Part shown: piece after piece, positions 8,947 to 55,137 of the stretch
Layout: each line of letters starts with the position of its first letter
How positions within the stretch are numbered: the first letter of the stretch is position 1
From: Oligoflexia bacterium
GTDB lineage: Bacteria; Bdellovibrionota; UBA1018; CAIPTA01
DNA length: 64,000 nt
Assembly: GCA_023954355.1 (NCBI GenBank)
Contig: JAMLID010000005.1
Span: 38,092 to 102,091 of the forward strand
Reading direction: 5' to 3'
Made by a program: the position numbers and the translations under genes
The notes under the pieces: generated by a model
The model's input: the letters and a program-made list of their open reading frames with translations, nothing else
Database searches by the model: none
Told to the model about the DNA's origin: nothing

Positions 8947-8951
8947 GCTTA

Positions 8952-10034
8952 ATGGACTCGGTAGAAGTCTTTCATAAAAGCGATGACTATCTATCTAGTC
9001 TTGAACAGGCTATACAATCTGCCCAAGACTCTATCTATATTGAAATGTATATTTTTGAGTGGGACGATGCAGGCAAATATCTTCTACAATTATTATCGGC
9101 AGCTAACAAAAGAGACGTAAGAATATTTATTCGTATTGATGGTATTGGCTCGTTACAAAGTAGCATCAGGCTAAAGATTTTTTGTAAAAAACATAATCTT
9201 GCTTTAGAAGTTTATCATCCGTCTCCATTCGCTACTCTAAACACAAAAAAACAAAATCTTTTTTATTATTGGAAAATTTTTCTATATCGATGGCGAATTC
9301 TCAACAGAAGAACGCACAGAAAAATTATCCTTATCGACAATCATATTGCCTACATCGGTGGCCGCAACATTCACAACCAAGCATTTAGTCGATTTGCAGG
9401 AGAGTCCGCATGGGAAGATAGCTCGATACTACTTAAAGGCAAGATCTGTGAGTCCATTTTCGAAATTTTTTGGTTTTATCCTTTTCGAACTCTTCCAATT
9501 GATAATTTACTTTTCAATTACTCTCTTCAGCTTCGGCGTAAGCGCTGGAAGTTTATTCGAGATAAAATCAAATCTGCACAAAAAAGAATTTGGATATCTT
9601 CTCCCTACTTAATGCCCACACCACAACTTCAATTTGCACTTAGAAAAGCTAGCAAGAAAGGAATAGATGTAAAAATTATAACAACAGAACTCACTGATGT
9701 TCTTATTAGTAAGTTAGCCGCAGAGGGTTTATTTAAAAAATTGCTTAAATGGAATGTTCACTTATTTTACTATCGTGAAAAAATATACCATCGCAAGCTA
9801 TTAGTAATCGATGATATGGCAATTTCTGGATCAGCTAATCTCAACTCTAGAAGCCTTTTGCACGATTTAGAGGTCGAGTGGATTGCCGACAATGGAAATG
9901 AATCTAGCTTTATTAAGCAATATGAATCTGACCTGAAGCACTCTAGAGAAGTTAACAGAAAAGAACTAGAGAGCTCTTCTTTTTTGAAAAATTTTGCTTC
10001 TTGGTTAGCAAGCTGGTTATCGTATTGGTTATGA
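8952..10034 (+). CDS. Phospholipase-D family protein (ClsB-like cardiolipin/phospholipid synthase).
   Basis: Two HKD motifs: HRKIILID..GGRNI and HRKLLVIDD..SGSANLNSRS. Confidence 0.75.
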   Translation: MDSVEVFHKSDDYLSSLEQAIQSAQDSIYIEMYIFEWDDAGKYLLQLLSAANKRDVRIFIRIDGIGSLQSSIRLKIFCKKHNLALEVYHPSPFATLNTKKQNLFYYWKIFLYRWRILNRRTHRKIILIDNHIAYIGGRNIHNQAFSRFAGESAWEDSSILLKGKICESIFEIFWFYPFRTLPIDNLLFNYSLQLRRKRWKFIRDKIKSAQKRIWISSPYLMPTPQLQFALRKASKKGIDVKIITTELTDVLISKLAAEGLFKKLLKWNVHLFYYREKIYHRKLLVIDDMAISGSANLNSRSLLHDLEVEWIADNGNESSFIKQYESDLKHSREVNRKELESSSFLKNFASWLASWLSYWL

Positions 10035-17469: not shown

Positions 17470-17961
17470 ATGCCATCTTTCGACGTTGTTTCAGAAGTGA
17501 ATTTGCAAGAAATCGACAATGCGGTAAACCAGACCAATAAAGAAATTTCTCAGCGCTACGATTTCAAAGGATCTAAAACAAATTTAGAGTGGAAAGCAAA
17601 AGAGAAGCAAATCATCATCGTTGCCGATGATGATTATAAGCTTACAGCGGCTACTGATATTTTGCAGTCTAAGCTTGTGAAACGCTCTATCCCTTTAAAA
17701 AACCTTAAATATAAGACAATTGAGCAAGCAACGGGTGGACAAGTTCGACAAGCAATAGAGATTCAACAAGGCCTTGATAAAGAAGCCTCAAAAAAAATCA
17801 CGCAAAAAATTAAAGATTCAAAATTAAAAGTGCAAGCACAAATTATGGAAGATCAAGTTCGTGTTAGCTCAAAAAGTATTGATGACTTACAAGCAACTAT
17901 TAGCTTGTTAAAATCAGCTGATATTGAATTGGGTCTACAATTTGTAAATATGCGAAACTAA
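17470..17961 (+). CDS. yajQ: YajQ-family nucleotide (c-di-GMP)-binding protein (UPF0234).
   Basis: [32 protein letters not shown] is the canonical YajQ N-terminus. Confidence 0.85.
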
Positions 17962-17964
17962 TCC

Positions 17965-19359
17965 ATGACAACCAAGCTTAACCCAGAAAAAATAAATCAC
18001 TCAAACACGCTTCAATCTAGTGTGTACTTTGTTTCGCTCGGTTGCCCCAAAAACCTTGTCGATTCACAAGTAATGCTAGGATTGCTCAAGTCAAACAAGT
18101 TTCAAATCACAGAAGAAGCAGAAACTGCTGATACTATAATTATCAACACCTGCTCTTTTATCGATTCTGCTAAAAAAGAATCTATTGATACCATTTTTGA
18201 AATGTCTCGCTTTCGAGAAGAGGGAGCACTAAAAAATTTAGTCGTGAGCGGCTGCATGGTTCAGCGTTACGCTAAAGAGCTTGAAGTTGAAATGCCTGAA
18301 GTTGACCTTTTTATTGGAACAGGTGAATACCACCGCGTAGTTGAGCTTTTACAGAAAAAAGCTCTTGGTAAACTTAAAACGAAAACATTTGTAGATATCC
18401 CTACCTTCATCCATACAGCCGAAACTCCAAGAATCAACACAGGGCTTAACCACTCGGCATTTCTGAAAATTTCTGAGGGTTGTGTACGTAACTGCTCTTT
18501 TTGTATTATTCCTGAATTACGTGGCCACAAAGTACGTTCTCGATCAGTAGACTCATTAGTATCTGAAGCAAAAAAGCTAGTATCAGATGGAGTAAAAGAA
18601 CTGAATCTGGTAGCGCAAGATCTCACTCACTATGGCATTGACAATAATTATAATGAGACATTAGCCGATTTACTCAGAGCGCTGGTACAAATTAAAGATT
18701 TACATTGGATTCGATTACACTACGCTTACCCAGATAACTTCACCGACGAAGTGATTGACATTATCGCTAAAGAAGAAAAAATTGTTAAATATTTAGATAT
18801 GCCCATTCAATATGGTGACGACAAAGTATTAAAACTGATGAATCGAAGAATCACCACTCAACAAATTCGCGAACGTATTGAGTCTCTTCGAAAAAAATGT
18901 CCAGAAATGGTGTTTAGAACAAATATTATTGTTGGTCACCCTGGAGAAACAGAAGAGAGTTACCAAAATACGAAACAATTTTTAGCTGACCTTGAGTTAG
19001 ATCATGTCGGTGTTTTTAAATATTCTTTAGAAGAAGGTACCCCGTCTTTTAGACTAGCTGAGAAAATTGGCTCTGTTCCAGAAGAACAAAGCCAAAAAAG
19101 ATATAATGAACTTATGGAGCTGCAACAGTCTATTTCGTGGAAAAAAAATAAAGCCATGGTAGGAAAAACCATATACGTACTAGTAGAAGGACTATCGAGA
19201 GAAAGTGATCTCTTACTTCAAGGACGCTGGGCTGGCCAAGCACAAGAAATCGACGGCGTAATTCTAATCAACGATGGAGATGCCAAGGTAGGTGAAATGG
19301 TAAAAGTAGAAATCACCGAAGCACTTCCCTATGATTTATTGGGAAGGATTGTGCCTTGA
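17965..19359 (+). CDS. rimO: Ribosomal protein S12 methylthiotransferase RimO.
   Basis: VYFVSLGCPKNLVDSQ (MTTase N-terminal domain), radical-SAM CxxxCxxC (EGCVRNCSFC), and a TRAM domain. Confidence 0.85.
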   Translation: MTTKLNPEKINHSNTLQSSVYFVSLGCPKNLVDSQVMLGLLKSNKFQITEEAETADTIIINTCSFIDSAKKESIDTIFEMSRFREEGALKNLVVSGCMVQRYAKELEVEMPEVDLFIGTGEYHRVVELLQKKALGKLKTKTFVDIPTFIHTAETPRINTGLNHSAFLKISEGCVRNCSFCIIPELRGHKVRSRSVDSLVSEAKKLVSDGVKELNLVAQDLTHYGIDNNYNETLADLLRALVQIKDLHWIRLHYAYPDNFTDEVIDIIAKEEKIVKYLDMPIQYGDDKVLKLMNRRITTQQIRERIESLRKKCPEMVFRTNIIVGHPGETEESYQNTKQFLADLELDHVGVFKYSLEEGTPSFRLAEKIGSVPEEQSQKRYNELMELQQSISWKKNKAMVGKTIYVLVEGLSRESDLLLQGRWAGQAQEIDGVILINDGDAKVGEMVKVEITEALPYDLLGRIVP

Positions 19360-23599: not shown

Positions 23600-23678
23600 C
23601 TTTGATAGCGCGTCCCTCTTGTATTTTATGCGAAAGCGAGTATTGTGCCGGCAAACCAAAACCCGGAGGATATTCGCG

Positions 23679-24158
23679 ATGATGAAATTAGCTGTATTAC
23701 TAGCTACCCTTATTAGTGCAAACGCTATGGCAACCCCAAAAGTAGGTGACTACGCAAAGTTTGATGCTGTTGCTCAAAAAGATGGTCAATCTATGGGCCT
23801 TACTATCGAACTAGCAATCACAAACTACAACCAAAGCAACAACCAATACCTTCAAAAACAAGTGATCACCATTTCTGGTGGGCAGTCACAAGTTAGCGAA
23901 GACTGGAAGCCTGCTGATGATTTCTTATCAGATGCAACCATTAACGCTGTTCTAAATAACTGTGCCCAAGCTGGTGGTACATTACAAACAGTTCAGTCTC
24001 CTGCTGGTTTATTCAATGCTTGCGCTGTTCCTTTTGACAACCAAGAAGAAAGAGGTACCGCATGGATTACCGCTGTTCCTTTTGGAATCGTAAAAATGGA
24101 AAGCTATAGCAAAACCGAAGGCCTAACCATTACTTCAGTACTTTCTAGCTATCGCTAA
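23679..24158 (+). CDS. Hypothetical secreted protein.
   Basis: A GGAGGA RBS 8 nt before the ATG. Signal peptide MMKLAVLLATLISANAMA. Confidence 0.55.
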   Translation: MMKLAVLLATLISANAMATPKVGDYAKFDAVAQKDGQSMGLTIELAITNYNQSNNQYLQKQVITISGGQSQVSEDWKPADDFLSDATINAVLNNCAQAGGTLQTVQSPAGLFNACAVPFDNQEERGTAWITAVPFGIVKMESYSKTEGLTITSVLSSYR

Positions 24159-24216: not shown

Positions 24217-24340
24217 TTTGTTTGCCCCACAGCACAGCTCGTGCGCTAATTCTTGCGATCTTGCTCCAACACAGCACCTTCTTCTCGATCACTCGACTCA
24301 TTTTGACGTAAAACAAAAAGAGACAGAAAGAGAGGCAAAT

Positions 24341-25048
24341 ATGAAAAAGCTTATCCTTATTTTTTTAGTGGTTGCATCCGTTGGTTGTGCTTCCAAAAAA
24401 GTAAAACCAATAGATGAAACTTTAGACATTAAAGCAACTATGGGCAATACCGAAATCGGTATGAACGATAATGAAGAAGCGATTATACAAGAAAGTATTG
24501 CTGTTGAAGATGAACTTCGTCGCTTGAGCTGGCAAAATTACGAAACAGAAAGAAAGTTAAAAGCTGAGCGTGAAGATCTCATCCACTGTAGAACAGAGCT
24601 AGCCGATCCAAGACTTGGCGGAAACAAAACATTAGAAGATATTCCAGAGTTACAAATCAGCGAAGACTTAAGCAAAGTTCAACAGAAGCTAGGAATCACT
24701 CAAAAAGGGCGAATAAAAGTGGTCAAAAAAGAATTTTTGACCGACAGAATGGAAAAAGAAACTCGCTATAAAGAATCCCTAGAAAACTTGCTAACTGTGA
24801 TTGAAAAGTCAGCCAAAAACTGTAATCGAGAGTTAGGTTATATTCGAGTACAACACGGGCTACCTTCAGAGCGATTTCCAGCTATTGGATACTTTGGACC
24901 TCAGGGAAACTTTATTGTCACCAGAGCGTCTGAAAAAACACTAGACGATGCCTTTCGCATTCTGGCAGAGCAAACAAGAAAAGGTAAAAAACTAGAGGTA
25001 AAAGAGAAAATTGCATCCCCTCTACCTGAAGAAGAAATAGATAATTAA
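24341..25048 (+). CDS. Hypothetical lipoprotein with a coiled-coil region.
   Basis: MKKLILIFLVVASVGCASKK lipobox, with an AGAGAGG RBS. No known domain. Confidence 0.6.
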   Translation: MKKLILIFLVVASVGCASKKVKPIDETLDIKATMGNTEIGMNDNEEAIIQESIAVEDELRRLSWQNYETERKLKAEREDLIHCRTELADPRLGGNKTLEDIPELQISEDLSKVQQKLGITQKGRIKVVKKEFLTDRMEKETRYKESLENLLTVIEKSAKNCNRELGYIRVQHGLPSERFPAIGYFGPQGNFIVTRASEKTLDDAFRILAEQTRKGKKLEVKEKIASPLPEEEIDN

Positions 25049-25594: not shown

Positions 25595-26620
25595 CTAAAC
25601 TAATACTCCAACAGATTGTCTATCTTCTATTAAAAGATTTCCAAAATAACAATTGGTAAGTGAGAACGAAACACCCGCGCCTAATTCTACGGGCTCAGAT
25701 TTTTGCAATGAATTGAGTTTTTGAAAATAGTGATAGAGATCATCATTACTATCAATTAACCTCTCTACTTTTCCTAAAAGCATACTGGTTACTAATCTAG
25801 GCAACTTCATTACTTTATTGAGACGCATTCCTTTTTCAAACCAGGTCAGTGACGACAAGCCCAAAAACAGAGACCAAGCACAAAAAAGTCTATACCCTCT
25901 TTCTGCCACAGGAATCGATAGAATATATCTAATAGCTCCATCAGCATGGGTAGCTAAGCTTGTGAGAACAGCCTTACGAGAAGGAACCAAGTAGCGACCT
26001 TCTTGCTCATCTTTTAACTGATCTTTTAAAATATTTACCTTTTGCAGAAAAAGACCAAAGTGTAAGGCATTTCGATAATCTTCTCTAGATTCGGTTTTTG
26101 CTCCTTTTAAGTGAAGATTCAATAAATTTGTCAAAAGCTCGCCTATGATCCCAGCAACGAAGAAGCAATACTGATTTAACTCTGCTATAGAGTGTAAGCG
26201 AAATATTTTTCCTTCAGATTTTTCTTTTAAAAAAGCTCTCATACCTCGCGACATGCTAAGTACGGTTGATTTAATCGTTGTTTGTACTTCTAGCGGAAAC
26301 TGGTGAAATGCATCGAAGACAGCTTTGCTATCTAGCAATAAATCTTTCTCTTCTGCTGGTATATTATCCGGGAACTGTTTAGCCCACTTCGTAACATACG
26401 GTGAATCAGGTGAACGATGTAAAAAATCCTCAAAGTCAGTAAAGGCAGCTTCTCTTAATACGCTTGATTGCCATGGACTATCTTCAACTGTATCTAAAAC
26501 TCGGCAAAGCAAATACGATACCGTGACCCAATCACGAAGCTCACCCTCTAATCGTTCGATGCAAAAAGCAAACGATCGACTCACACGATTTAAGTGGTTC
26601 TGCATTCTAGCTCTGTCCAT
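25595..26620 (-). CDS. Squalene synthase (farnesyl-diphosphate farnesyltransferase, eukaryote/FDFT1-like single-enzyme type).
   Basis: NRVSRSFAFCIERLEGELRDWVTVSYLLCRVLDTVED, YCFFVAGIIGELLTNL and GLFLQKVNILKDQLKDEQEGR track the SQS signature blocks. Confidence 0.75.
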   Translation of the reverse strand: MDRARMQNHLNRVSRSFAFCIERLEGELRDWVTVSYLLCRVLDTVEDSPWQSSVLREAAFTDFEDFLHRSPDSPYVTKWAKQFPDNIPAEEKDLLLDSKAVFDAFHQFPLEVQTTIKSTVLSMSRGMRAFLKEKSEGKIFRLHSIAELNQYCFFVAGIIGELLTNLLNLHLKGAKTESREDYRNALHFGLFLQKVNILKDQLKDEQEGRYLVPSRKAVLTSLATHADGAIRYILSIPVAERGYRLFCAWSLFLGLSSLTWFEKGMRLNKVMKLPRLVTSMLLGKVERLIDSNDDLYHYFQKLNSLQKSEPVELGAGVSFSLTNCYFGNLLIEDRQSVGVLV

Positions 26621-26693: not shown

Positions 26694-27632
26694 ATGAAAA
26701 TTGAACAAAAAATACCCGTCAATATTCATTATTTACTCGTAAATGAAGCCTGCCCCGCTGATTTGTTTATTTTTTTCCGAGGGCAATATGCTCCTCTACG
26801 AAAAGCTCAAGAAGCATTAGAGCCAAAAATTATTGAGAAAATTCTTCTTACTAAATCACCTTTTTTCTATGTGAATCCAAGCGACTGGCCACAATGGAAA
26901 AAATGGATTGACGCTAGATATAAAAAAAACACAAGTAGCTCTTCAGATACTGCATCTAAAAAAAACACAGAAGAAGACTCTCTTTTTGGAAATAAACGAG
27001 CAGAGTTTCTAAGTTACGCAAGAAAAACTCTTCACCCTAGAGACTCTTCTTCCTCTCGAACAGAACAGCAAATGGACCATGCACTAAATGCGATTGAAAA
27101 AGTTATTCGAACACCTTTATTGGATTGGTATTTTAATCAATTTCACGAACCACCTGATTTATTTCAACATAATGCTAGGGTTACATTTGGTGTTGCAACC
27201 TTTTGCCTTATAAACAGTATCAAAACTGATTACGCTCTTGAAGAACTCATCCACTCTTGCATCATCCATGAGCTTGAGGGAGATCCAAAAGAAACCTCTA
27301 AAAAAGTCGCTTCACAAACGACCCTTCAGATTATGGAAAAAAAGAAATACTCTGTGCCAAAAAAGGTTTTAGACCTGATCAAAATTCAAGATGAACTCTA
27401 TTCAGGAAAAGGATCACCGAAAAACTTAAAAGGAGAAGATGTACCGTATGCTATTCGTATATTTTCTTTATTTAACCTTTTTGACCATTACAGAGTTAAT
27501 ACATCCGGCACAAGAAGATCGCGCTTTGACAGAGTTAAAAAAAGCATGGAATCTCGCAAGGATGATTTCGACCCTGTGCTATGGACACTTTTCTGGTCTT
27601 ACTGGGAAGAACAAGTGGAAGGAATCTCATGA
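26694..27632 (+). CDS. Degenerate HD-GYP-like domain protein (HD changed to HE, GYP to GSP), likely non-catalytic.
   Basis: HNARVTFGVATF..CIIHELEG....YSGKGSPKNLKGEDVPYAIRIFSLFNLFDHY aligns to the HD-GYP core (H..RVA...HD.GK...WDGSGYP.GLKGE.IP..ARI..VADVFDAL) with the metal-binding residues substituted. The N-terminal half is Ser/Lys-rich and low-complexity. Confidence 0.55.
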   Translation: MKIEQKIPVNIHYLLVNEACPADLFIFFRGQYAPLRKAQEALEPKIIEKILLTKSPFFYVNPSDWPQWKKWIDARYKKNTSSSSDTASKKNTEEDSLFGNKRAEFLSYARKTLHPRDSSSSRTEQQMDHALNAIEKVIRTPLLDWYFNQFHEPPDLFQHNARVTFGVATFCLINSIKTDYALEELIHSCIIHELEGDPKETSKKVASQTTLQIMEKKKYSVPKKVLDLIKIQDELYSGKGSPKNLKGEDVPYAIRIFSLFNLFDHYRVNTSGTRRSRFDRVKKSMESRKDDFDPVLWTLFWSYWEEQVEGIS

Positions 27633-29077
27633 GTCAAGAACTAAAAATAGACTTTTTCCAAACAACTCAACATATATCTCCAGCAATTTTTTCAACACTA
27701 GAAAAATTCTCTCACAAGCTTTTGGATCCATTCTCTAAAGTAATCAGTGAGCAAAAATCTTCATCTTCAGCTGTTTTTGTGAGAAAAGAAATCACAATAG
27801 AAAATCAAATTGTAGCTGTATTAGAATGTGAAGCAACTAATTTAGATTGGCTTCTTAACGTAATTAAACTCGACCTAGAAAAAAATATTGAACTAGCAAA
27901 AATCTCTGTAGAAAGAGAATCTGAATTAATTTTAAAAAAAGATATTTCTTATCTGTCTGAGATCTCAGAATCATCTGATAATAATTTAGAAAACTGCCTA
28001 CGTGAAATCTTAAGATTAGCGCAATCACATGTTTGGGTCGAGTCAGCGTCTATATTCGGTATACGTGATGGTTATACACTAGAAGGACTAATGGGAGTTG
28101 GTGGTGGAAAAAATCAACCTGAGTGGACTATGGATATGTCTACTATAGCAGGAAAAACCGCTGCAGAAAGAAAGCTATATCTATCTGAAAATCCAGCAAA
28201 AGATCCTTTCTTTAAAACTAAAGAAAATTCCGTTTTACCAAGAAACTTATTATGCATACCCCTTATTTTTTCAGATACTCTTGTAGGGGTTATCAATTTT
28301 TCAAACTCTATAGGTAGTCATTTCACTGAAGAAAAGATTACTATTGCAAAAAAGTTCGCTGACCTTACTGCAAGAATTTTAGAAAGAATTTTTTTAAAGC
28401 AAAGAATGCAATCGTTTGAAAAAACATCAGGCAATTTGGGCAAATATCTTTCGAATAAAGTTGCACGCTCAATGTCTGAAAAAGACTCTCTGGCTCTTGG
28501 AGGTGCAGAAAAACGAGTTGTTTGTTTATTTTCTGATATTAGAAACTACACTTCAATTTCAGAGGATATTTCTCCTCAAGACTTAGTCAGTTTACTTAAT
28601 TTTTATTTTGAGCGTATGCACGAGGTCATAGAAAAATACGAAGGTACGCTAGATAAAATTGTCGGTGATCTTGTTATGGCTGTTTGGAATATTCCCTACG
28701 ACCAGCCAGACCCAGAACTCATGGCGATGAAAGCAGCCTTAGAGATGCAAAAAGAAATGATGAAGTCGGTTCGACCAGAATGGGCCAAACGTGGCGTAGA
28801 AAAAGTAGGTATTGGTATTGGAGTAAACGCAGGGCAGGCTATTGTAGGTAACCTTGGATCAAGTCGATTTATGAATTATACCGTTGTTGGTGATACCGTA
28901 AACACAGCACAGCGACTTGAGTCGAAGGCTCGCTCTGGCGAAATATGGATGGCAGAATCTATTTTTTCTTTTGTAAATGGAAAAATTGAAAAACCCTTGC
29001 GTAAGGAAGTCGACATCCGACTCAAAGGCAAAGACCAAAGCATTAATGCCTTTGTTTACCAGCCTTACTCCTATTAA
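27629..29077 (+). CDS. GAF-domain class III nucleotidyl (adenylate/guanylate) cyclase.
   Basis: GAF signature (LCIPLIFSDTLVGVINFSN). CHD motifs VVCLFSDIRNYTSISE, VGDLVMAVWN, GIGVNAGQAIVGNLGS and VVGDTVNTAQRLES. It overlaps the upstream gene with ATGA. Confidence 0.8.
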   Translation: MSQELKIDFFQTTQHISPAIFSTLEKFSHKLLDPFSKVISEQKSSSSAVFVRKEITIENQIVAVLECEATNLDWLLNVIKLDLEKNIELAKISVERESELILKKDISYLSEISESSDNNLENCLREILRLAQSHVWVESASIFGIRDGYTLEGLMGVGGGKNQPEWTMDMSTIAGKTAAERKLYLSENPAKDPFFKTKENSVLPRNLLCIPLIFSDTLVGVINFSNSIGSHFTEEKITIAKKFADLTARILERIFLKQRMQSFEKTSGNLGKYLSNKVARSMSEKDSLALGGAEKRVVCLFSDIRNYTSISEDISPQDLVSLLNFYFERMHEVIEKYEGTLDKIVGDLVMAVWNIPYDQPDPELMAMKAALEMQKEMMKSVRPEWAKRGVEKVGIGIGVNAGQAIVGNLGSSRFMNYTVVGDTVNTAQRLESKARSGEIWMAESIFSFVNGKIEKPLRKEVDIRLKGKDQSINAFVYQPYSY

Positions 29078-29212: not shown

Positions 29213-29992
29213 ATGAAAAAAATCGCCTTACTACCTATTGCGCTTTTAACCGTAGCCGTGACAGCTTTTGCTTCGAACGCCATTGAGCAGCTCAACCAAG
29301 AAATCGTGAATTTGCTTGCCCCTTTTCAAAATGAAAAGACACAAGCAAGACTGGTTTTCAATAAAATTGAAACTAGCGACAAGCACGCTTTAAATCTTGA
29401 CTTAAACGCCTACTACCAAAAAGTAGGTAGCTTAACCTCACTACTCGTGAATCTTGATAAAATTTCTTACTCCTATAACGACGGAGTCAATCCAACCACT
29501 CACGTGAGAGGTAATCTTGGAATCGAGTTGAATAAGCTAGTTCCTCAAGAAGATTTGAATGAATTAATTCCTGGTGTAGAAGATTTATTACAAAGCTTAG
29601 CTAAAGAATATTTAGAAGTTTATGGCGATGCTGTTGATCTCTCTTTTGTTAACATAAACAAAATCCAAGATGAAAATGGAAATTATGTAAGTATCAGTGG
29701 AGACATTGTATTTTCTATAGATTTTACAAAGCTCCCTGAAGAAATCGACGCTAGTGAAATTCCTGTAAAGGCAGGTAACATTTCAGTTGGTCTAGATGTA
29801 CGACAAGGCTTGAACTTTGATGTATTGGTTGAGAGCAATCCAAGCTACAAAGGCTACGAAGAAGACAATCTGGGGCTTAAAGAAATTCTTGATCTATTGT
29901 TAAACAAAGATGAAGCGATTTTAGAGCAAATACAGTCTCTATTCAGTGAAATTGATCATTTTGCAGGAAACCTTGTAGAAGGTCAGCTCTAA
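29213..29992 (+). CDS. Hypothetical secreted protein, 259 aa.
   Basis: AAAGGAGAAA RBS. Signal peptide MKKIALLPIALLTVAVTAFA. No known domain. Confidence 0.6.
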   Translation: MKKIALLPIALLTVAVTAFASNAIEQLNQEIVNLLAPFQNEKTQARLVFNKIETSDKHALNLDLNAYYQKVGSLTSLLVNLDKISYSYNDGVNPTTHVRGNLGIELNKLVPQEDLNELIPGVEDLLQSLAKEYLEVYGDAVDLSFVNINKIQDENGNYVSISGDIVFSIDFTKLPEEIDASEIPVKAGNISVGLDVRQGLNFDVLVESNPSYKGYEEDNLGLKEILDLLLNKDEAILEQIQSLFSEIDHFAGNLVEGQL

Positions 29993-30086: not shown

Positions 30087-30410
30087 ATGAAGATCGGTTT
30101 ACATATTCTCTGCTTAACTTTAGTGCTTACATTTTCTTCTATCAGCTATGCTCAAGAGGTAGAAATCACTCTCTACCGTTGGGATTTAGGTTATCTTGCT
30201 TCTCCTGAGCCCAGTACAAAACGAATCATAAGCGACCAAGACCTTAATACTTTTTTTAGCTCTAAAGACCTACAAACAATTGATAAATCAGAAGGACTCT
30301 ACCAAGGATGTTATTTAGTGAAAGTAGACACCTCTTCAGGTAGGTCTCCCTCTTCGGAAAAAGATTTTTCCTATCGTAAAAAATGCTTTATAGAAAAATC
30401 TGAATCTTAG
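30087..30410 (+). CDS. Hypothetical small secreted protein.
   Basis: Signal peptide MKIGLHILCLTLVLTFSSISYA. Confidence 0.5.
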   Translation: MKIGLHILCLTLVLTFSSISYAQEVEITLYRWDLGYLASPEPSTKRIISDQDLNTFFSSKDLQTIDKSEGLYQGCYLVKVDTSSGRSPSSEKDFSYRKKCFIEKSES

Positions 30411-31469: not shown

Positions 31470-32315
31470 ATGACGAACAACATCGCTGATCTTGAATTTG
31501 TTGCCTTTGATACGGAAACAACTGGCCTTTCTCCATTTACAGAGTCTTTAGTCGAAATCGCGGCTGTGCGATTTAATCTAATCCAAGGCCCTCTAGAATA
31601 TTTTCAAACTCTAGTGAATCCTGGAAAAGAAATTCCCTGGCAAGCAACAAAAGTTCACGGGATCACCAACGAAATGGTATTCGAGGCTCCTCCTATTGAA
31701 AAAGTTTTACCTCCTTTTTTTCAGTTTTTAGGAAACTCAATTCCCGTAGCTCATAATGCAGGTTTTGATATTGGTTTTATTAGCCTCTATAGCTTGCGAC
31801 ACGAGATCATCCCCACTGAGCAACCGATTTTAGATTCCTGTATGTTTTCCAGAAGAGTGCTTACAGAGCAACCAAGCCATGGCCTTGAGGCATTGGTTAA
31901 TTCTTTACAAATTACAGCTGCCGGGGCCTCTCACCGTGCTCTAGCAGACACCAAACACTGCATGGAGCTTTTTCGCATCCTAGTAGGACGCTCTTGTGGA
32001 ATCAATGCCAGCTGGGAAGATTTACTTAAGGTTCATGGGAAAACCCATTCCTTCAATGAAGGCAGTCGACCTCTAGAAGAAAATGAGGCTAAATCGCATT
32101 TATTGCCATTATTTGAAGCCTTAAAAGAGCGCTCTTCCATATGGATAGAGTATGATGGGGGATTCGGCCCTCGAGAGGTTTCGCCCCTTATGGTATACGC
32201 TAAAGGCTCACAACAATACCTTGAGGCAACTTGTCATTTGGATGGCATTCGTAAGAGTTTTCGATTAGATAAGATCCGAGCAGTAAAAGGTAATTATTCG
32301 TTTATAGATAAGTAA
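31470..32315 (+). CDS. DnaQ/DEDDh 3'-5' exonuclease fused to a C-terminal WYL domain.
   Basis: Exo I FVAFDTETTGL, Exo II AHNAGFDIGF, Exo III HRALADTKHCMELF. The C-terminal stretch IWIEYDGG..PREVSPLMVY..GSQQYLEATCHLDGIRKSFRLDKIRAV fits the WYL consensus (WYL.A.C......R.FRLDRI). Confidence 0.6.
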   Translation: MTNNIADLEFVAFDTETTGLSPFTESLVEIAAVRFNLIQGPLEYFQTLVNPGKEIPWQATKVHGITNEMVFEAPPIEKVLPPFFQFLGNSIPVAHNAGFDIGFISLYSLRHEIIPTEQPILDSCMFSRRVLTEQPSHGLEALVNSLQITAAGASHRALADTKHCMELFRILVGRSCGINASWEDLLKVHGKTHSFNEGSRPLEENEAKSHLLPLFEALKERSSIWIEYDGGFGPREVSPLMVYAKGSQQYLEATCHLDGIRKSFRLDKIRAVKGNYSFIDK

Positions 32316-37445: not shown

Positions 37446-38129
37446 TGTTTCTAAGATTTTGTCCCCACCTAGGATAGTTAGGTAGGGTAAAATTTTAGTG
37501 ATTAAGTCTCTATTATTTTCTACTCGAACGCCTTCTTGTTCTAATGAAGTCCAAGAAGCGCGTTCTGCACTAATTAAACCAAATCCTGAACTACTTGCTC
37601 GAGTGACATTGATAGAAAATCCGTGGAATACATACCCATCTTTCACTGTAATCGCCAGAGTTGCTAGCTTACCTCTAGCCGTCCACAAACTCGATTCGTT
37701 CGCTTTTGTCTGTACAGAGCGAACTCCTAGTACAGCTAATGCATGAGCTAATCCCATAAGCATTTCGTCAGTGAACCTACGCAAGAGATCTATACCTTCT
37801 AAATCACTTAGTTTTAAAATAGGAAAGCCAATAATTTGCCCTGGTCCATGATAAAGCGCACCACCACTGCGATCAGTTTTTAGAATTTGAATGCCTCTAT
37901 CTTCAATAAAATTTTTAGAAACCGCTATATCTTCTACACCACAAGAATCTGCACCTAATGTTATCGTCTCAGGAGATTCAAATGCCAAAAGACCCGAGTA
38001 ATTTTCAGCACTCAAGAGCCCTTGTAACCGCAAGGCACGCTCATAAGAATAGTTTGATCGATAAGAAAAGAATGCAGGTTTCAAACAAAGTCCCCTAAAT
38101 TTTATCCGATATGCTCTGTTTTCCATCAA
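37329..38129 (-). CDS. lipB: Octanoyltransferase LipB (lipoyl(octanoyl) transferase) with a ~40-aa C-terminal extension.
   Basis: GGALYHGPGQ and KLATLAI (catalytic Lys), FHGFSINV. The 3' end overlaps the convergent gene at 36936-37445 by 117 bp. Confidence 0.7.
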   Translation of the reverse strand: MMENRAYRIKFRGLCLKPAFFSYRSNYSYERALRLQGLLSAENYSGLLAFESPETITLGADSCGVEDIAVSKNFIEDRGIQILKTDRSGGALYHGPGQIIGFPILKLSDLEGIDLLRRFTDEMLMGLAHALAVLGVRSVQTKANESSLWTARGKLATLAITVKDGYVFHGFSINVTRASSSGFGLISAERASWTSLEQEGVRVENNRDLITKILPYLTILGGDKILETSKTERYEHSYTNLVSTVSRSQMAIDHFRSNIESFGKRE

Positions 38130-39213
38130 TAGTAGATGGCGCTTCTTTATAAAAAGCTGAGCTTAAATATCGTTCTGTAAAATAACCACCTAGAACTTTT
38201 ACCATCGCCATAATAGGCAGGGCCAAAAGCACTCCTAAAAAACCTAACAGCTCTCCGCCAGCTAATAAAGCTAAAATTATTGTTAGAGGAGATATCCCCA
38301 TTTGTTTTCCCACGATTTTCGGTGTCAACACAGTGTTATCTAATAAATTCGCAGTAAGATACACGCCAACCAGAGCAATGCATTGGGTTAACTGCGCACC
38401 TCCAATAAGAGCTAAAAAAAGCGAAAGTGCTAGCGATACAAGAGGACCCACAAAGGGAACCAAATTCATAAAACCACTAAATATTCCTAAAAGAAGTGCC
38501 ATCTCCATACCTATCGCACCTAAGGCAATGCTGTAGTAGGCAGCCAAAATGGCACAAACTAAAAATTGCCCACGGATTAACCCACCAAGAACAACAGACA
38601 ATCGCCTCATCACTTCTTTCACATCCTCAACGTAACGCCGAGGAACAATTTGTAGCAGTCGCTCATTCAGTAAGTAATAATCTTTCAAAATATAAAACGT
38701 GAGAATAGGTACTAGCAAAATAGTGAGTAAGGTACTTAGAGCCTTAACCGTTCCACTCATTACACTCTCTAAAATTCCAGCAGCGGGAAAATTACCGATC
38801 TCAGGAAAAATCGATGGTATTACATCTTTCCACTGAGAAAAAACATCATACCCTAAATACTTTTCTGACACTGGACCAACACGAACGGATAAAAAATCCA
38901 TGAGCAATGGTAGCTTTTCAAATAACTCGCGTACCTGCACAAATACACGAGGCACCATCATTAAAACAAATGCCATGATCGCACTGAATACTAAAATTAA
39001 TAAAAGAAAAATCGGACCAAGACGACCAAACCCTCTTTTTTCAGCAATACGAACAACAGGATTTAATAAAAAAGCGAAAAAATACGAAACAAAAATGGGA
39101 ATATAAATAGAACGAAGAAAGTAAATACTTATAAAAAACAGTAGTGCTACTGCCACTAATATTCTTTGTTGAACCACAGTCATTTCTCTTCTTGGGTTAA
39201 TCATCAAACTCAT
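38095..39213 (-). CDS. AI-2E family transporter (PerM/YdiK-like).
   Basis: About 8 TM helices and the ..GGELLGFLGVLLALP.. signature. A GGTGGGGG RBS is present. Confidence 0.8.
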   Translation of the reverse strand: MSLMINPRREMTVVQQRILVAVALLFFISIYFLRSIYIPIFVSYFFAFLLNPVVRIAEKRGFGRLGPIFLLLILVFSAIMAFVLMMVPRVFVQVRELFEKLPLLMDFLSVRVGPVSEKYLGYDVFSQWKDVIPSIFPEIGNFPAAGILESVMSGTVKALSTLLTILLVPILTFYILKDYYLLNERLLQIVPRRYVEDVKEVMRRLSVVLGGLIRGQFLVCAILAAYYSIALGAIGMEMALLLGIFSGFMNLVPFVGPLVSLALSLFLALIGGAQLTQCIALVGVYLTANLLDNTVLTPKIVGKQMGISPLTIILALLAGGELLGFLGVLLALPIMAMVKVLGGYFTERYLSSAFYKEAPSTIDGKQSISDKI

Positions 39214-39240
39214 CTGCCCCCACCACTACTTAGAATCGGT

Positions 39241-40194
39241 CTAATATAATTGAACGATATCTCCCTCTAAAAAGTTTCCCCCAGAGTGGAGCCTACCAAT
39301 CGATCCATCCTCACCAAAATATTGAGAAATTTCAATAGTACCTTTTAAATCGCCTGCGGTTCTTCCTAAAAAAAGTCCCGTTTCTGGATCAAAAATATCT
39401 TGCCCTTGGCTATTTACTTTCAAAATATCGCCTACATTTAAACCCGTCGCTCGTCCTGCGTTGATGTAAATTTTTGCTCCAGTAATTTTTGCTATTTTGC
39501 CTCTCCATTGAATACGGTCAATTTCTTTATTTAGAGAGGGCATTGCCTTTGATACGGCATCGTGAATTGCCATAGTTACTACATCATTACGATATTCTTC
39601 ATTGTCCTCACGATCGACCCCAAAAAGATTTAAACTAGATGACTCACTAAGACCTGTAGCCTCTCCCATGGCCACTTCTTTTGCCTGCTCAACATCAACC
39701 AATCTCAACTCAAGTGTTACTGAAGCCTTAGCAGCACTAGGACGTAATAATCCGACATCATCATCTTTTCTACGGAAAACAATTTTAGAAATTCTTCCAA
39801 GAATCACTAGAGATACACCCCACTTTTTTCCATTTTCAGAAACATGAGGAACATTAATTTTTTCTGAATCCAAATAAAAGTCTTGGCTTCTAAGCGCTAC
39901 ATCTCGCTCATCTACAATATTTAAACGATTTTGCTCTAGTAAAATTTCTCGCAATACATTTTTTGAATAAACTTCGAATCGTCCTTTAATAGGAGTGTCA
40001 TTCCAAAAAGGTAGAACCACAACTCTCTTTCTTAGAGGTGAAAATTTTTGAACAGCGCTTTCTATTCTTCTTTGTTCTGATGGTGATTGACTGTATACGC
40101 CACTCTCTTTCCGAAATCCGGTAGATCTTGTACAGCCACTTAGAACAACAACTAAAGTGATCAAAAGATAAATTAAACTATTTGATTTCATCAC
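39241..40194 (-). CDS. Hypothetical lipoprotein (LPP20/CsgG/LpoB-like features; function unknown).
   Basis: MMKSNSLIYLLITLVVVLSGC lipobox, with an AAGGTGGAG RBS. Weak resemblance to periplasmic LpoB/CsgG-fold lipoproteins. Confidence 0.55.
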   Translation of the reverse strand: MMKSNSLIYLLITLVVVLSGCTRSTGFRKESGVYSQSPSEQRRIESAVQKFSPLRKRVVVLPFWNDTPIKGRFEVYSKNVLREILLEQNRLNIVDERDVALRSQDFYLDSEKINVPHVSENGKKWGVSLVILGRISKIVFRRKDDDVGLLRPSAAKASVTLELRLVDVEQAKEVAMGEATGLSESSSLNLFGVDREDNEEYRNDVVTMAIHDAVSKAMPSLNKEIDRIQWRGKIAKITGAKIYINAGRATGLNVGDILKVNSQGQDIFDPETGLFLGRTAGDLKGTIEISQYFGEDGSIGRLHSGGNFLEGDIVQLY

Positions 40195-41368
40195 TTACTC
40201 CACCTTCTTGGATTTCTACTTTAGGCGTTTCAATTCTAACTGTTATTAATGGGCTTTTAATTTCGTAAGGATCATCAAGCATTTCTTCAATAGGCACTAC
40301 TACTAGTTCAGTCTTGGGAATCGATTGTAGTGCCTTAATAACTGCTTTATTATCCATGACAGGCTCTACTGCAAAATCAAATTTTCCTCGACGGATTCGA
40401 TAGTCTCGAACAGATTTAATATCTTTAACTGCAGAAAATAGCTCGCGAAACTTATTAAGTGCTAAAGGAGAATCTGGATTCTTTACACGTAAAACAAAAA
40501 ATGGGTCTGTACTAGAGGCATTAGCAACAACCTTACCCGCCTCTACAAAAGCAATTTGAAATAAAGAATCCACTTCATCTGGTAAAAGTTTTTTCATATC
40601 CGAAATATACTGGTCTCTTCTTGTTCTAGGCTCAGAAAAGTTAATAGTAGACTTAGTTAAAACCTGCCCATTAGAGACATCTATCATAGTCGCTGAAACA
40701 GCAATTTTCTGCTGTTTGCCTTTTTCTTCTTCCATATCAACTACAATATAGTCCATCGTGATACCCAGTGCGAGTCTAGCACCAGCTTTACTACCAATCG
40801 CCTTTAATACTTCTGTTGAAGCCAAATTTTCTTTCGATAAAATTTGAGAGTTTGAATTATCAATAAAGTCTACAGCGAATCCCCTTCTCTCTAATCTTTG
40901 CTCTGCCATCTTTCGAATGGGCTCAAAAAGCTCATTAAGGGATTTTTCTTTGTCTTGAGAAGTTTGAATATTTGATAAGTCCAAGGGACGCAATAAAATA
41001 ACTGCTTTACTATTTTCTTTCTCACCCATCGCTTCTGGGCTAAGTGCTAGTAAGTGCTTTACAATTTCTAAATCTAGTTCAGCTTGTACGGCAACCGTCG
41101 AAGATTTTTTTGATTCTAAAACTTTATAAGACTGAACAAAAGAAGATGCTTTAGGTAAAATTTCTTCGGCTAAAAATTCTTTAAGATTTTTATCTTTCTT
41201 GTTAGTGAAATTTTTTACCACACCCTGTCGCAGAGCCGCCGAAACAGCTTCACTAGTATCTTTGCCATAACCTATTACTGATGTAGAAGCTTCAACTTTA
41301 GTTAAAGACAAAAAAAGACCTAAGGCTAATAGCCCTAAAAAAAACCGTTTATTGAAATCCAAGAACAT
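40178..41368 (-). CDS. Hypothetical secreted protein, about 396 aa, with repeated LPP20/LpoB-like modules.
   Basis: Signal peptide MFLDFNKRFFLGLLALGLFLSLTKVEA. It overlaps the dnaE stop and the downstream lipoprotein start. Confidence 0.5.
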   Translation of the reverse strand: MFLDFNKRFFLGLLALGLFLSLTKVEASTSVIGYGKDTSEAVSAALRQGVVKNFTNKKDKNLKEFLAEEILPKASSFVQSYKVLESKKSSTVAVQAELDLEIVKHLLALSPEAMGEKENSKAVILLRPLDLSNIQTSQDKEKSLNELFEPIRKMAEQRLERRGFAVDFIDNSNSQILSKENLASTEVLKAIGSKAGARLALGITMDYIVVDMEEEKGKQQKIAVSATMIDVSNGQVLTKSTINFSEPRTRRDQYISDMKKLLPDEVDSLFQIAFVEAGKVVANASSTDPFFVLRVKNPDSPLALNKFRELFSAVKDIKSVRDYRIRRGKFDFAVEPVMDNKAVIKALQSIPKTELVVVPIEEMLDDPYEIKSPLITVRIETPKVEIQEGGVSDEIK

Positions 41369-44300
41369 CACTTCCGAAGATCTCCTTAACCTCTTGGATA
41401 AAACCATAGTCTGCTGAAAATTTTAAATCATCTGGAAACTGAAAGCGAGCGCGAACACCACTATCTGACACATATTCTATAACTCCTTTACACGCCCCTT
41501 TATTACGTACACACAGCGCTTTTAAGTCTTCTAATTGTTTTTTCGATGTTTTTTCTGGATTCAAACGAAAAACCACAGATTTTACACTTTGAATTTTTTC
41601 ACGAGAAGCCAACTCTAGAGGTTCAACTTGAATCGCCAAAATTTTGGCACCTCCATCACTCCCCTCAATATCTCCTTGTACAACTACTACGTTGCCAACA
41701 AATAAATAATCCTTACACTTCTCATAAGCGCGAGGAAAACACACAACCTCAATTTTACCACTTAAATCTTCTAAGGTGACAAAAGCCATACGATCACCTT
41801 TTTTTGTCATAATTTCTTTTGACGCTGAAATCATGCCACCTATTCTGGGCGCATTTGCCTGCTGTGCTTTTCTTGCCTTCCAATCCTTTGCTTGGTCTGG
41901 TTTTTTCTCAAACTTACCTTCAGCAGAAAGTTCGAAAATACGAGAAATCGTATAGCTAGCACACTCACGCAGTAGTGAAGTATATGGATCTAGAGGATGT
42001 CCACTAACATAAAAACCTAAAAGTTCTCTTTCCGATTCTAACCTTTCCATTTGGTTCCACTCTTGTTGAAAAGAAATCGCCGGTTCTGCAGAAAGTAAAT
42101 TTGGTCCATCGCTATCAGCAAATGATGCTGCAAATAGATTGGCTTGACCTAAGCTTTCAGTTTCTGCTTCTTTAATGGCCCAAGCACCAATCATCTCCAT
42201 AGCCTTAAATAAACCGTGTCGAGTAACTTGAGAGTTGTCAGCATATACAGAATCAAAAGCACCAGCTTTAATTAAAGCTTCTATCGTTTTCTTATTAACT
42301 TTTTTGCCAACCATTCTCTTGCAGAATTCTGGGAATGAACGAAATACACCTTTTTCTTTTCTCTCTTGTACAATTTCATCTACAGCAGCAGCACCACAAC
42401 CTTTAATAGCCTCTAGACCAAAGCGTATCGTTTTTGTTCCATTTGCTTCTACTACGTTAAACTCACCAACAGACTGATTGATATCTGGACCTAATACCTG
42501 AATTTGATGGTCCTTAGCATCACCAATATATTTAGCCAAGCGATCAGTATCAGACATTTCTGTAGTTAGTAGTGCTGCGTAGAACTCTGCTGGATAGTGC
42601 GCCTTTAAATACGCTGTTTGAAAAGAAACATAAGCATAAGCGGTCGCATGAGATTTATTAAAGCCGTATCCAGCAAATTTTTCGATTAAGTCAAAAATCT
42701 CTGTTGCTTTGTCTGAAGGAATTCCATTTTTCTCTGCTCTCTCGACAAAGCCCTTTTTCATCTTTGCCATTTCTTCGGGTTTTTTCTTTCCCATCGCTCT
42801 ACGCAACAAATCAGCTTCACCAAGAGAATAACCAGCCAGAACTCGTGCAGCTCGCATCACCTGCTCTTGGTAGATAATTACACCTAAAGACTCTCTTAAT
42901 ACTTCTTCTAGCTGAGGAACTGGATATTCAATCGTAACTCGACCGTGTTTTCTTTCAACGAAGTCATCAACCATTCCACTCTCTAAGGGCCCAGGTCGAT
43001 AAAGTGCGTTGATCCAAGTTAGCTCTTCAAGGTTCGATGGTCCTAGCTTTTTACATAGCTCTGACATCCCAGAACTCTCTACCTGAAACACTCCGTTCGT
43101 ATCCCCTTTTGCAATCAGTGCATAGGCTTCAGCGTCGTATACCCCAATATCTTCAATACGAAATACAGGCTCTTCTTTTTTTCTAAATCCATTTATAAGA
43201 TCAACAGCACGTTGAATATGAGTGAGAGTTTTTAAGCCTAGAAAGTCAAATTTAACTAGTCCAACTTTTTCCCCAGCATCTTTATCATATTGAATGACTA
43301 CGGCTCCGTCTTCATCCATCATAAGCGGAGCATAATTCGTTAGTGGTTTATCTGTGATAATTACACCACCAGCGTGCTTACCAAATGAACGAGTAAGCCC
43401 TTCTAGTTTTAATGCATGATTAAAAAGTTTGTCTACTGTGGGATTTTCATCTCGCATTTCATTGAAGCGAGGTTCTTTTTCTAAAGCCTCTCTCAAAGAG
43501 ATTCCTAGTTGTTCAGGAACAAGTTTGGCAATTTGATCAACTTCTCCATAGGGCATACCTAAAACACGCCCTACGTCTCGAATACATTGCTTTGTTTGTA
43601 ATCTACCGAAGGTAATAATTTGAGAAACTTGATCACGCCCGTATTTATCTTTTACGTAATCAATCACCTCACCTCGTTTATCCATACAGAAGTCGACATC
43701 AAAGTCAGGCATACTTATTCGTTCTGGATTGATAAATCTTTCAAAAAGCAAATTGTAAGGAATTGGATCGATATCGATAATCTGTAAAGCCCAAGCCACT
43801 AACGATCCAGCTCCTGATCCTCGCCCTGGACCCACAGGTATACCTTGTTTTTTAGCCCATTTAATAAAATCAGAAACGATTAAAAAATATCCAGAGAAGC
43901 CAGTTGCTTGAATCATTTTCACTTCATCTTGTAAACGATCTCTGTATTTTAATTCTAAGTGCTTCCAATCTTCAGACTGCTTTGTTGGTAAAAAACTTGG
44001 CTGATTAAAGCGCCATTCAAGCCCACGCTCTGATTCAAGAGCAAGATAATCTTCAGCTGTCTTTACGCTCTCTTCTTTAGGAATTTCAAATTTAGGTAAG
44101 TGATATATAGGCCTGCCTTTTTCATCAACGAACTTAAATTCTACAGAACACTGCTCAGCTATAAGATTGGTATTTTCTAGTGCCTCAGGGCAAAAAGCAA
44201 ATTGCTCTTTCATTGTCTCTGGGTCTTTAAACCAAAACTCTGTACATAGTGATCTTTTGTTTTCGTCAGAAACAGTTCGTCCCAACTGAGTTAGAACAAA

Positions 44301-55088: not shown

Positions 55089-55137
55089 GGATGCGTTATA
55101 CCAAAAATTCAAAAATAAAAAAGAAAGAGACTAAAAA

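Follow-up and report, generated by a model that had tools for sequence, protein, structure and literature searches.

We describe two overlapping genes of an Oligoflexia bacterium (Bdellovibrionota), whose products are in our opinion two proteins working as one unit, because the genes show a deep reciprocal adjacency with overlapping stop and start codons. They lie in a stretch of 64,000 nucleotides of a metagenome-assembled genome (assembly GCA_023954355.1, contig JAMLID010000005.1, positions 38,092 to 102,091), hereafter called the window, whose G+C content is ~38% and whose coordinates are used throughout. The first open reading frame, ORF1 (26694-27632, + strand), encodes 312 amino acids with the architecture of Bd1817 from Bdellovibrio bacteriovorus and a divergent HD-GYP domain (HE and GSP in place of HD and GYP). 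The second, ORF2 (27629-29077, +), encodes a GAF-sensor class III adenylate cyclase of 482 amino acids, as judged from Pfam and PDB matches, an AlphaFold2 model and Foldseek comparisons. Together they would form a two-protein module for cyclic AMP (cAMP) signalling, found only in Bdellovibrionota. Our favoured explanation is that ORF1 is a regulatory subunit which does not hydrolyse cyclic di-GMP (c-di-GMP) and which binds the cyclase, with the GYP loop as the likely contact; we would give this explanation an even chance of being correct.

The junction of the two genes is compact. The start codon of ORF2 overlaps the stop codon of ORF1 in the tetranucleotide ATGA (27629-27632, +), and a Shine-Dalgarno-like GGAAGGA (27617-27623, +) is embedded in the 3' end of ORF1, 5 nt before the ORF2 start; GGAGG occupies the equivalent place in most related loci. 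The reading frame of ORF2 is open from 27566 and contains two ATG codons, at 27581 and 27629. We place the start at 27629 because the NTGA junction is conserved among related loci (13 of 15), and for the same reason the upstream ATG at 27581 was rejected. Among the 15 junctions that were compared, the two that depart from NTGA read TGATG and TAGtATG, a GGAGG-like motif precedes the junction in most, and the 4-nt overlap is present in two further loci (L017 and L018) as well. The first-pass annotation of this DNA had proposed translational coupling from the ATGA overlap alone, and the related junctions now speak for it too. It was also considered that ORF1 and ORF2 might be a single gene split by a frameshift; this was rejected, as the two-gene layout is conserved with the same overlap and a fused homologue never appeared.

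Some smaller observations belong to the same region. ORF1 homologues end in a conserved peptide, ..VEAxS, whose coding sequence gtGGAGGc.. doubles as the Shine-Dalgarno-like motif of the cyclase gene downstream (window 27610-27632; L001-L016), hence these codons may be under a double constraint, one from the peptide and one from the motif. The NCBI entry identical to ORF1 is annotated as "hypothetical protein" and that identical to ORF2 as "GAF domain-containing protein". An Rfam search found neither a riboswitch nor any other Rfam family near the operon, one tRNA being its sole match in the window, and a scan of the locus for promoters and terminators gave no signal above that of shuffled sequence.

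The conservation of the pair was assessed with a genome scan, a metagenome scan and look-ups of exact proteins, which gave 16 loci with an ORF1 homologue (L001-L016). The metagenome scan with an alignment of close members returned 4 loci, and a word-index search with a mixed profile added two distant members; locus counts depend on what the indexed collections returned. A cyclase orthologue lies immediately 3' of the ORF1 homologue in L001-L007, in L010-L016 and, as a partial sequence, in L008. No cyclase was detected in L009, whose sequence ends ~400 bases past the ORF1 homologue. The reverse test gave the same picture: all four cyclase orthologues that were looked up (L017-L020), including the three most distant ones (37-43% identity), have an HD_5-type gene directly upstream, namely those for P0052, P0041, P0028 and one new sequence. 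All loci with enough sequence, about 18, tested in both directions and found in varied contexts, carry the pair, and among the loci examined no unpaired member of either family was seen. The functional link that the first-pass annotation had suspected is therefore much stronger than it could know, since all of the related loci that were examined have kept the pair.

One may object that the adjacency is nothing but inherited gene order and that ORF1 and ORF2 are functionally independent. Indeed, a wider synteny does exist in several loci, where it includes a lipoprotein-like gene, a GNAT gene, SQS_PSY, an epimerase and RNase_T-WYL. However, the pair is kept despite unrelated flanks in L004, L006, L014, L016, L017, L018 and L020, and a single metagenome-assembled genome (MAG) carries it in two paralogous copies (L005 and L006). 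It persists at 24% identity for ORF1 and 31-37% for ORF2; the ORF1 homologue of L014, P0039, is only 24% identical to ORF1 and is still paired. Further, the stop-start overlap is itself conserved, and no member of either family was found on its own. We consider functional independence hardly credible, and mere synteny effectively excluded.

The locus L014 deserves a separate remark. On this contig (ENA ERZ28669879) the gene of P0039 (5986-6951) is followed by two tandem cyclase genes, at 6953-8398 and 8400-9857. The first of these cyclases has lost both metal-binding Asp (FVVIQ, and ITP for VGD) and kept Lys, Thr, Asn and Arg; the second has kept both Asp, Lys and Thr, with Asn replaced by Glu and Arg by Trp. 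Judging from these residues, such complementary defects are what one would expect if the two cyclases were active only as a heterodimer sharing one active site, as in the mammalian C1/C2 arrangement.

The product of ORF2 is the easier of the two to interpret. The first-pass annotation had described it as a GAF-sensor class III adenylate/guanylate cyclase with its catalytic Asp, Asn and Arg intact, and a residue-level alignment to CyaB, CyaC and Cya2 bears this out: the metal-binding Asp residues are D303 (FSDIR) and D347 (VGDL), the second of them being clearly present, and the transition-state residues are N425 and R429 in VNTAQR, in agreement with the pattern VNxAxR. The substrate pair, which had been left undecided between the two nucleotides, is K343/T418, aligning with the Lys/Thr of CyaB (3r5g) and CyaC (1wc0), while the guanylate cyclase Cya2 has Glu/Gly. 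By the rule applied here, an adenylate cyclase is recognised by Lys together with Asp or Thr, and a guanylate cyclase by Glu together with Cys, Gly or Ser. Given the Lys/Thr pair, ORF2 is therefore predicted to be an adenylate cyclase with all catalytic residues intact, rather than a cyclase of undetermined substrate. D303, K343, D347, T418, N425 and R429 are invariant across 32 orthologues. The protein would accordingly be a catalytically competent, dimeric and GAF-regulated class III enzyme of the Lys/Thr type. A response to bicarbonate is typical of Thr-type cyclases.

ORF2 begins with a small alpha/beta module (residues 1-68) and a long helix (69-114; together 27629-27970, +), which are seen in the model, match no Pfam domain and are specific to this group; H29, D33 and S40 of the module are conserved among orthologues. 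A GAF domain follows at residues 119-253 (27983-28387, +), which scores above the cutoffs of GAF_2, GAF and GAF_3 (37.4, 30.2 and 28.5 bits), and then the catalytic domain at residues 296-471 (28514-29041, +; Guanylate_cyc, PF00211, 94.1 bits). In the AlphaFold model, with a predicted local distance difference test score (pLDDT) of 85.8, the order is alpha/beta module 1-68, helix 69-114, GAF-like fold 120-232, helix 234-272, a low-confidence segment 266-290 and cyclase 293-477. The top full-length structural match found with Foldseek is a phytochrome-cyclase chimera, and the nearest solved catalytic domains are those of Synechocystis Cya2, Pseudomonas aeruginosa CyaB and Spirulina CyaC. As modelled, the layout is that of an ordinary sensor-helix-cyclase. 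No NKFDE pattern, the signature of GAF domains binding cyclic nucleotide monophosphates (cNMPs), was obvious by eye in the alignment of orthologues.

The GAF-regulated or class IIIb cyclases (Anabaena CyaB1/CyaB2, Spirulina CyaC 1WC0, P. aeruginosa CyaB 3R5G) share with ORF2 the sensor-helix-cyclase order, the two metal Asp, Lys/Thr and Asn/Arg, with ~30-34% identity in the catalytic domain. ORF2 differs from them in its own N-terminal alpha/beta module and long helix, and in having an obligate upstream partner gene. Its orthologous group has a sharp edge: ~78 clusters lie above 300 bits, after which the score drops to 189 bits for the next cyclases, which are FHA-GAF-cyclases and cover only ~63% of the query.

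The product of ORF1 is a more intricate case. The first-pass annotation had recognised a divergent HD-GYP protein with HE and GSP in place of the signature residues, and the motifs are indeed there: H159-N-A-R-V, I-H192-E193-L-E-G (HE for HD), S237-G-K-G-S241-P (GSP for GYP) and LKGEDVPYAIRI. The match of ORF1 to the Pfam model HD_5 is marginal (28.4 against a cutoff of 27.2 bits, and to the C-terminal half of the profile only); all 26 of the family members scanned match HD_5, however. The top Foldseek matches to ORF1 are the Bd1817 entries (3tmc/3tm8), which span the whole protein (317-319 columns, E 7e-7), and the structural precedent in Bdellovibrio, to which the first-pass annotation had pointed, turns out to be the closest solved relative over the full length. 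ORF1 has the HD fold with the GYP-loop insertion that defines an HD-GYP domain, and it has the architecture of Bd1817: a beta-rich domain at the N-terminus, next a set of linker helices that carry a variable insert, and an HD-GYP domain at the C-terminus, in ~300 amino acids. A plain sequence search of the PDB with ORF1 returned only V-cGAP3 and PA4781, both through the GYP-loop region (E 0.011 and 0.69), and did not find Bd1817; structure comparison was therefore needed. The sole NCBIfam match of ORF1 is to the NosR family model, at 37.5 bits against a cutoff of 400.

In detail, the beta-rich N-terminal domain comprises residues ~1-75 (26694-26918, +), as delimited by secondary structure, conservation and the alignments with Bd1817. 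Its family-conserved residues are L14, P21, (C22), D23, F28-R29-G30, W68, W71 and R75, and it is possible that it serves as a signal-input or docking domain. The profile alignment of this domain to that of Bd1817 (chain residues 21-104) is weak (domain E 4.2), and none of the 26 family members scanned matches Pfam DUF3391 (PF11871) at E <= 1. Bd1817 itself is reported to be far from the DUF3391 consensus, and proteins of the DUF3391 type carry variable inserts at the site that matches the insert of ORF1 (bioRxiv 10.1101/2021.11.05.467447). This insert is Ser/Lys-rich and disordered (residues ~77-100; 26922-26993, +), it has a pLDDT below 50 at residues 80-97, and its length and sequence vary across the family, as the gapped alignment columns indicate. 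The first-pass annotation had taken it for a low-complexity N-terminus, which is not correct: it lies between the folded N-terminal domain and the linker helices. The latter occupy residues ~101-148 (26994-27137, +; model helices 92-112, 121-138 and 141-148) and end in W145-Y-F; K101, R102, E104, W145, Y146 and F147 are invariant in the family alignment A1. The HD-GYP-like domain fills residues ~149-312 (27138-27629, +), and was delimited with a MAFFT map to canonical relatives, the Bd1817 ligand list and the family frequencies. Within it the GYP-loop region, residues 232-247 (27387-27434, +; QDELYSGKGSPKNLKG), is the most conserved element of the family. HDOD domains, which are degenerate HD-related signalling domains known from SadB, for example, were also considered: ORF1 is clearly closer to HD-GYP structures, and none of the 26 family members scanned reached the E-value limit of 1.0 with Pfam HDOD.

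For the state of the active site, the ORF1 family and canonical full-length relatives were collected by an exhaustive profile search, aligned with MAFFT and read against the list of Bd1817 ligands. The family comprises ~50 clusters, with position frequencies taken from 49 sequences, and is known from MAGs and metagenomes only; where a name exists, both the ORF1 and the ORF2 families are named only from MAGs of Bdellovibrionota, Oligoflexia or Bacteriovoracia. In Bd1817, the first metal site (M1) consists of H150, H183, D184 and N265 and the second (M2) of D184, H212, H237 and E238, while D268 orients H150; in the same protein the N-terminal domain spans residues 1-78, the linker helices 79-146 and the HD-GYP domain 147-308 (PMC3188283). 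H159, H192, N261 and D264 of ORF1 align with H150, H183, N265 and D268. The first metal site of ORF1 hence matches M1 residue for residue, save that E193 replaces the Asp, and D264 would orient H159. The remaining features are a different matter. The HDxGK dyad reads IHELEG, with E193 for the bridging Asp and no Lys; of the ligands of the second metal, S207 stands for the His of the HP motif (H212 of Bd1817) and Q232-D233 for H237-E238, and Q232-D233-E234 takes the place of HHE in the motif HHExxDGxGYP. Compared with canonical relatives, the lid between HDxGK and HP is shorter by about 19 residues, R314 and K317 of PmGH (the RxxK pair, after the DxFD helix) align to T270 and T273, with R274 and R275 one and two residues further, and the Tyr of GYP is S241. 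The lid motif KPG, the RxxK pair and the Tyr of GYP are the contacts of HD-GYP domains with c-di-GMP (bioRxiv 10.1101/2021.11.05.467447).

These states are in large part those of the family (n = 49). H159 is present in 94% and H192 in 98% of the sequences, E193 in 86% with Asp in 0/49, N261 in 78% with Asp in another 7/49 (N/D 92%), and D264 in 86%. S207 is found in 82% and His at this position in 2/49. Position 232 is His in 24/49 and Gln in 23/49, and D233 is conserved in 84%. The GYP loop is nearly fixed at E234 (98%), G238 (100%), G240 (98%) and P242 (98%); position 241, that of the GYP Tyr, varies freely (Phe in 25/49, else A, L, G, R, N, V, Q and others), with Tyr in P0029 alone among the family sequences inspected. 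The ORF1 family is a distinct 'HE' branch of HD-GYP, in which the alignment indicates that the classical first metal site is under selection, and that nothing is left of the second site, of the lid or of the known c-di-GMP contacts. ORF1 does not qualify as a functional HD-GYP phosphodiesterase, since it has kept neither the HD Asp and the M2 His residues nor the Tyr and the contacts with c-di-GMP, and hydrolysis of c-di-GMP is not expected of it.

In three members, P0047, P0048 and P0052, the first His was lost independently (H159 changed to V, C or S), and in P0047 and P0048 E193 is replaced by Lys or Arg as well. P0052 has gone furthest, with H159, H192, E193, N261 and D264 all lost; still present are W145/F147, R162, the RR motif, the DEL-SG-G-P loop and the helix at the C-terminus. 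The gene downstream of it encodes a cyclase, P0252, with all catalytic residues in place.

The first-pass annotation had called ORF1 a probable non-catalytic sensor of cyclic dinucleotides. The first half of this description, lack of catalysis, remains plausible on the residues seen; the second finds no support, as the known c-di-GMP contacts are deleted or replaced. Spelled out, the idea would be that ORF1 is a catalytically dead HD-GYP which binds c-di-GMP or another cyclic dinucleotide and relays this to the cyclase, a cross-talk from c-di-GMP to cAMP. In its favour are the HD-GYP fold, the obligate pairing with a cyclase and the conserved pocket of H159, H192, E193 and R162, with R274/R275 near the RxxK position; moreover, a YajQ/DUF520 gene and a cNMP-binding membrane protein occur in the window, and Bdellovibrio has a well-established cross-talk that runs the opposite way, from cAMP to the EAL enzyme Bd1971, which it activates (PMC6717892). 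However, none of the three known sets of contacts is present (the KPG lid is deleted, RxxK has become T270/T273, and the Tyr has become a Ser at a freely varying position), and a positive sign of dinucleotide binding was found in no member of the family. We therefore regard a dinucleotide sensor as quite improbable.

The conservation of the first metal site raises another possibility, namely that ORF1 is an active phosphodiesterase with a remodelled HE metal site, mononuclear or water-bridged binuclear, and hydrolyses cAMP, so that the operon would make and break the same messenger and shape short local pulses of it. The H...H(D/E)...(D/N) site is intact at the family frequencies given above (H159, H192, E193, N/D261 and D264) and corresponds one-to-one to the M1 site of Bd1817, and without the lid the pocket would admit a smaller substrate. 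Against this, none of the 49 sequences has the bridging Asp, and the third His is missing; further, the first His or more has been lost in at least three members (P0047, P0048 and P0052), of which P0052 is paired with an intact cyclase. A stop-start overlap kept over such deep divergence is also more typical of the subunits of a complex than of antagonistic enzymes. To our knowledge, no HD-GYP has been shown to hydrolyse cAMP. There would be a place for such an enzyme, since the cAMP-specific phosphodiesterases of Bdellovibrio are described as unidentified (PMC6717892). The same source calls its four annotated adenylate cyclases the "subject of ongoing study". All considered, we find an active cAMP phosphodiesterase rather unlikely, if worth keeping in mind.

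We thus return to the regulatory subunit, for which we envisage the following scenario. ORF1 would derive from a phosphodiesterase of the Bd1817 type, and would have lost what is needed for binding and cutting c-di-GMP: the second-site His, the lid with its KPG, the Tyr and, where the alignment places it, RxxK. It would persist as an obligate partner whose synthesis is tied to that of the cyclase by the overlapping stop and start codons, and most likely binds the cyclase directly and tunes the synthesis of cAMP. The contact surface would be the invariant GYP loop (DEL-SG-G-P), by analogy with RpfG, where the GYP motif is needed for binding GGDEF-domain proteins (PMC3749722; also PMC3188283), and the signal would enter through the N-terminal domain, through the residual H/H-E/N pocket, or through both. 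Degenerate HD-GYP proteins are indeed reported to act by regulating partner enzymes (PMC12570481). The case of P0052 bears on the contact: because it has lost all metal ligands and is nevertheless paired with P0252, the metal site is dispensable for pairing, and the feature common to all partners is therefore the GYP-loop region and not the metal site. The analogy with RpfG gains some weight from the partner, as GGDEF and class III cyclase domains are homologous and have the same fold, according to what Pei and Grishin reportedly concluded in 2001.

The gene anatomy, the fold, the residue states and the strict reciprocal conservation of the pair and its overlap we take as established. From these we infer the physical complex of ORF1 and ORF2, the direction of regulation, the contact surface and the identity of the signal, and there are several points which count against our explanation. 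The M1 ligands are 78-98% conserved in the family and not obviously required for a purely structural docking, therefore the pocket of ORF1 may still bind a metal or a ligand, or even catalyse. P0052, the single ligand-less member, could belong to a decaying lineage. The analogy with RpfG rests on a DxD motif of its GGDEF partners. Finally, no fusion of an HD-GYP with a cyclase (a "Rosetta stone") occurs among 10 long relatives, which carry only REC, PilZ, HDOD or unannotated extensions.

A bolder version of the regulatory subunit can also be formulated, in which an HD-GYP phosphodiesterase scaffold has been turned into a dedicated regulatory subunit of class III adenylate cyclases, docks through its GYP loop on the cyclase-fold domain, as RpfG does on GGDEF domains, and in L014 serves a complementary pair of half-site cyclases. 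We put this forward tentatively, as a possibility that we would not yet back.

A comparison with known systems helps to see what is new here. Bd1817 (3TM8/3TMB/3TMC/3TMD), the 'unconventional' HD-G-P protein of B. bacteriovorus and the prototype of the DUF3391-HD-GYP architecture, comes from the same phylum as ORF1, is of nearly the same size (308 against 312 amino acids) and has the same three-part build; both lack the GYP Tyr, and both have Asn as the fourth M1 ligand (N265 and N261). The two share only ~12% identity, however. Bd1817 keeps HD, the third His (H212), the ligands H237-E238 and the lid, and binds two Fe, whereas ORF1 has HE, Ser for H212, Q-D for H-E and ~19 fewer residues in the lid. 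Bd1817 was reportedly the first HD-GYP structure to be solved, and its deletion is said to have given no detectable phenotype. From the canonical HD-GYP phosphodiesterases of c-di-GMP or cyclic GMP-AMP with which it was compared (PmGH 4MCW, PA4781 4R8Z, V-cGAP3 5Z7C, DvhD 9RBZ and RpfG), ORF1 differs in the HD Asp, the HP His, both His of HHE, the GYP Tyr, the KPG lid and RxxK; one His of HHE is retained in about half of the family, unlike in ORF1 itself.

Degenerate HD-GYP proteins are common, but few of them have a known role. The closest parallels to the role proposed for ORF1 would be the RpfG::GGDEF complexes and degenerate regulators such as NosR (HG-GTP), in which an HD-GYP scaffold regulates an enzyme of the cyclase fold by protein contact. 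ORF1 and ORF2 differ from RpfG::GGDEF in that the partner is a class III adenylate cyclase and not a GGDEF protein, there is no REC domain, the genes form one operon with overlapping codons, and the interaction is deduced indirectly. A degenerate signalling enzyme acting as regulator of a partner is a known kind of system; the class of the partner and the well-delimited family are new, and our literature searches, which were aimed at the pair and at the annotated Bdellovibrio cyclases, turned up no account of a class III cyclase gene coupled to one of HD-GYP type.

In our opinion the locus is of interest as a clean and testable case, in that a family of HE-type HD-GYP proteins is found only beside one orthologous group of GAF-adenylate cyclases. 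If the complex exists, it would extend the notion of the HD-GYP as a protein-binding regulator from diguanylate cyclases to cAMP synthesis, show a new way in which class III cyclases of bacteria can be controlled, and add a second node, after Bd1971, to the cAMP/c-di-GMP wiring of predatory bacteria. A pseudo-phosphodiesterase subunit would be the first such control of a bacterial class III cyclase by a partner protein, and would give a functional clue for orphan proteins of the Bd1817 type. If, on the other hand, ORF1 turns out to be active as an HE-type enzyme, it would represent a bacterial cAMP phosphodiesterase of a new kind.

With regard to the surroundings of the operon, a gene of the squalene/phytoene-synthase family (SQS_PSY, 102 bits; 25595-26620, - strand) is divergent from it and lies 73 bp upstream of ORF1. 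This neighbour is shared by most of the close loci (L002, L003, L005, L007, L008, L009, L011-L013, L015 and L019) and absent from L001, L004, L006, L014, L016-L018 and L020; the arrangement may reflect local synteny only, or a shared control region. Downstream, a fusion of an RNase_T-type 3'-5' exonuclease with a C-terminal WYL domain (31470-32315, +) is syntenic with the operon in L001-L003, L005, L013 and L015. WYL is a ligand-binding domain common in defence and regulatory proteins.

Two genes to which the first-pass annotation had drawn attention, those of YajQ and of a cNMP-binding membrane protein, are both present in the window. The YajQ/DUF520 protein is encoded at 17470-17961 (+; 215 bits), and a MiaB/RimO-like radical-SAM methylthiotransferase (UPF0004, Radical_SAM and TRAM; 17965-19359, +) starts 4 nt after its gene; a second MiaB/RimO-like enzyme is encoded at 53658-55112 (-). 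The cNMP-binding protein (49478-51436, -) has 652 amino acids, with ~6-7 hydrophobic segments (108-386) followed by a cNMP_binding domain (439-524, 82 bits), and might act as a membrane receptor of cAMP produced by ORF2 and similar cyclases. An IMP dehydrogenase gene (51456-52943) is immediately beside it, and a GMP synthase gene (44986-46548) is ~3 kb away.

Four small proteins encoded on the + strand (23619-24158, 24218-25048, 29213-29992 and 30087-30410) have hydrophobic N-termini which by eye resemble signal peptides, and match no Pfam family. Those at 29213-29992, 23619-24158 and 24218-25048 are conserved in related Bdellovibrionota loci with ~31-71% identity; for the one at 30087-30410 there is a single weak match (31% over 75 residues, in L004). 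Further along the window, the gene of an AI-2E family transporter (38095-40194, -; 189 bits) adjoins those of a weak CsgG-like lipoprotein (26.5 bits) and of a 409-amino acid protein with no Pfam match (40178-41407), upstream of the gene for the DNA polymerase III alpha subunit.

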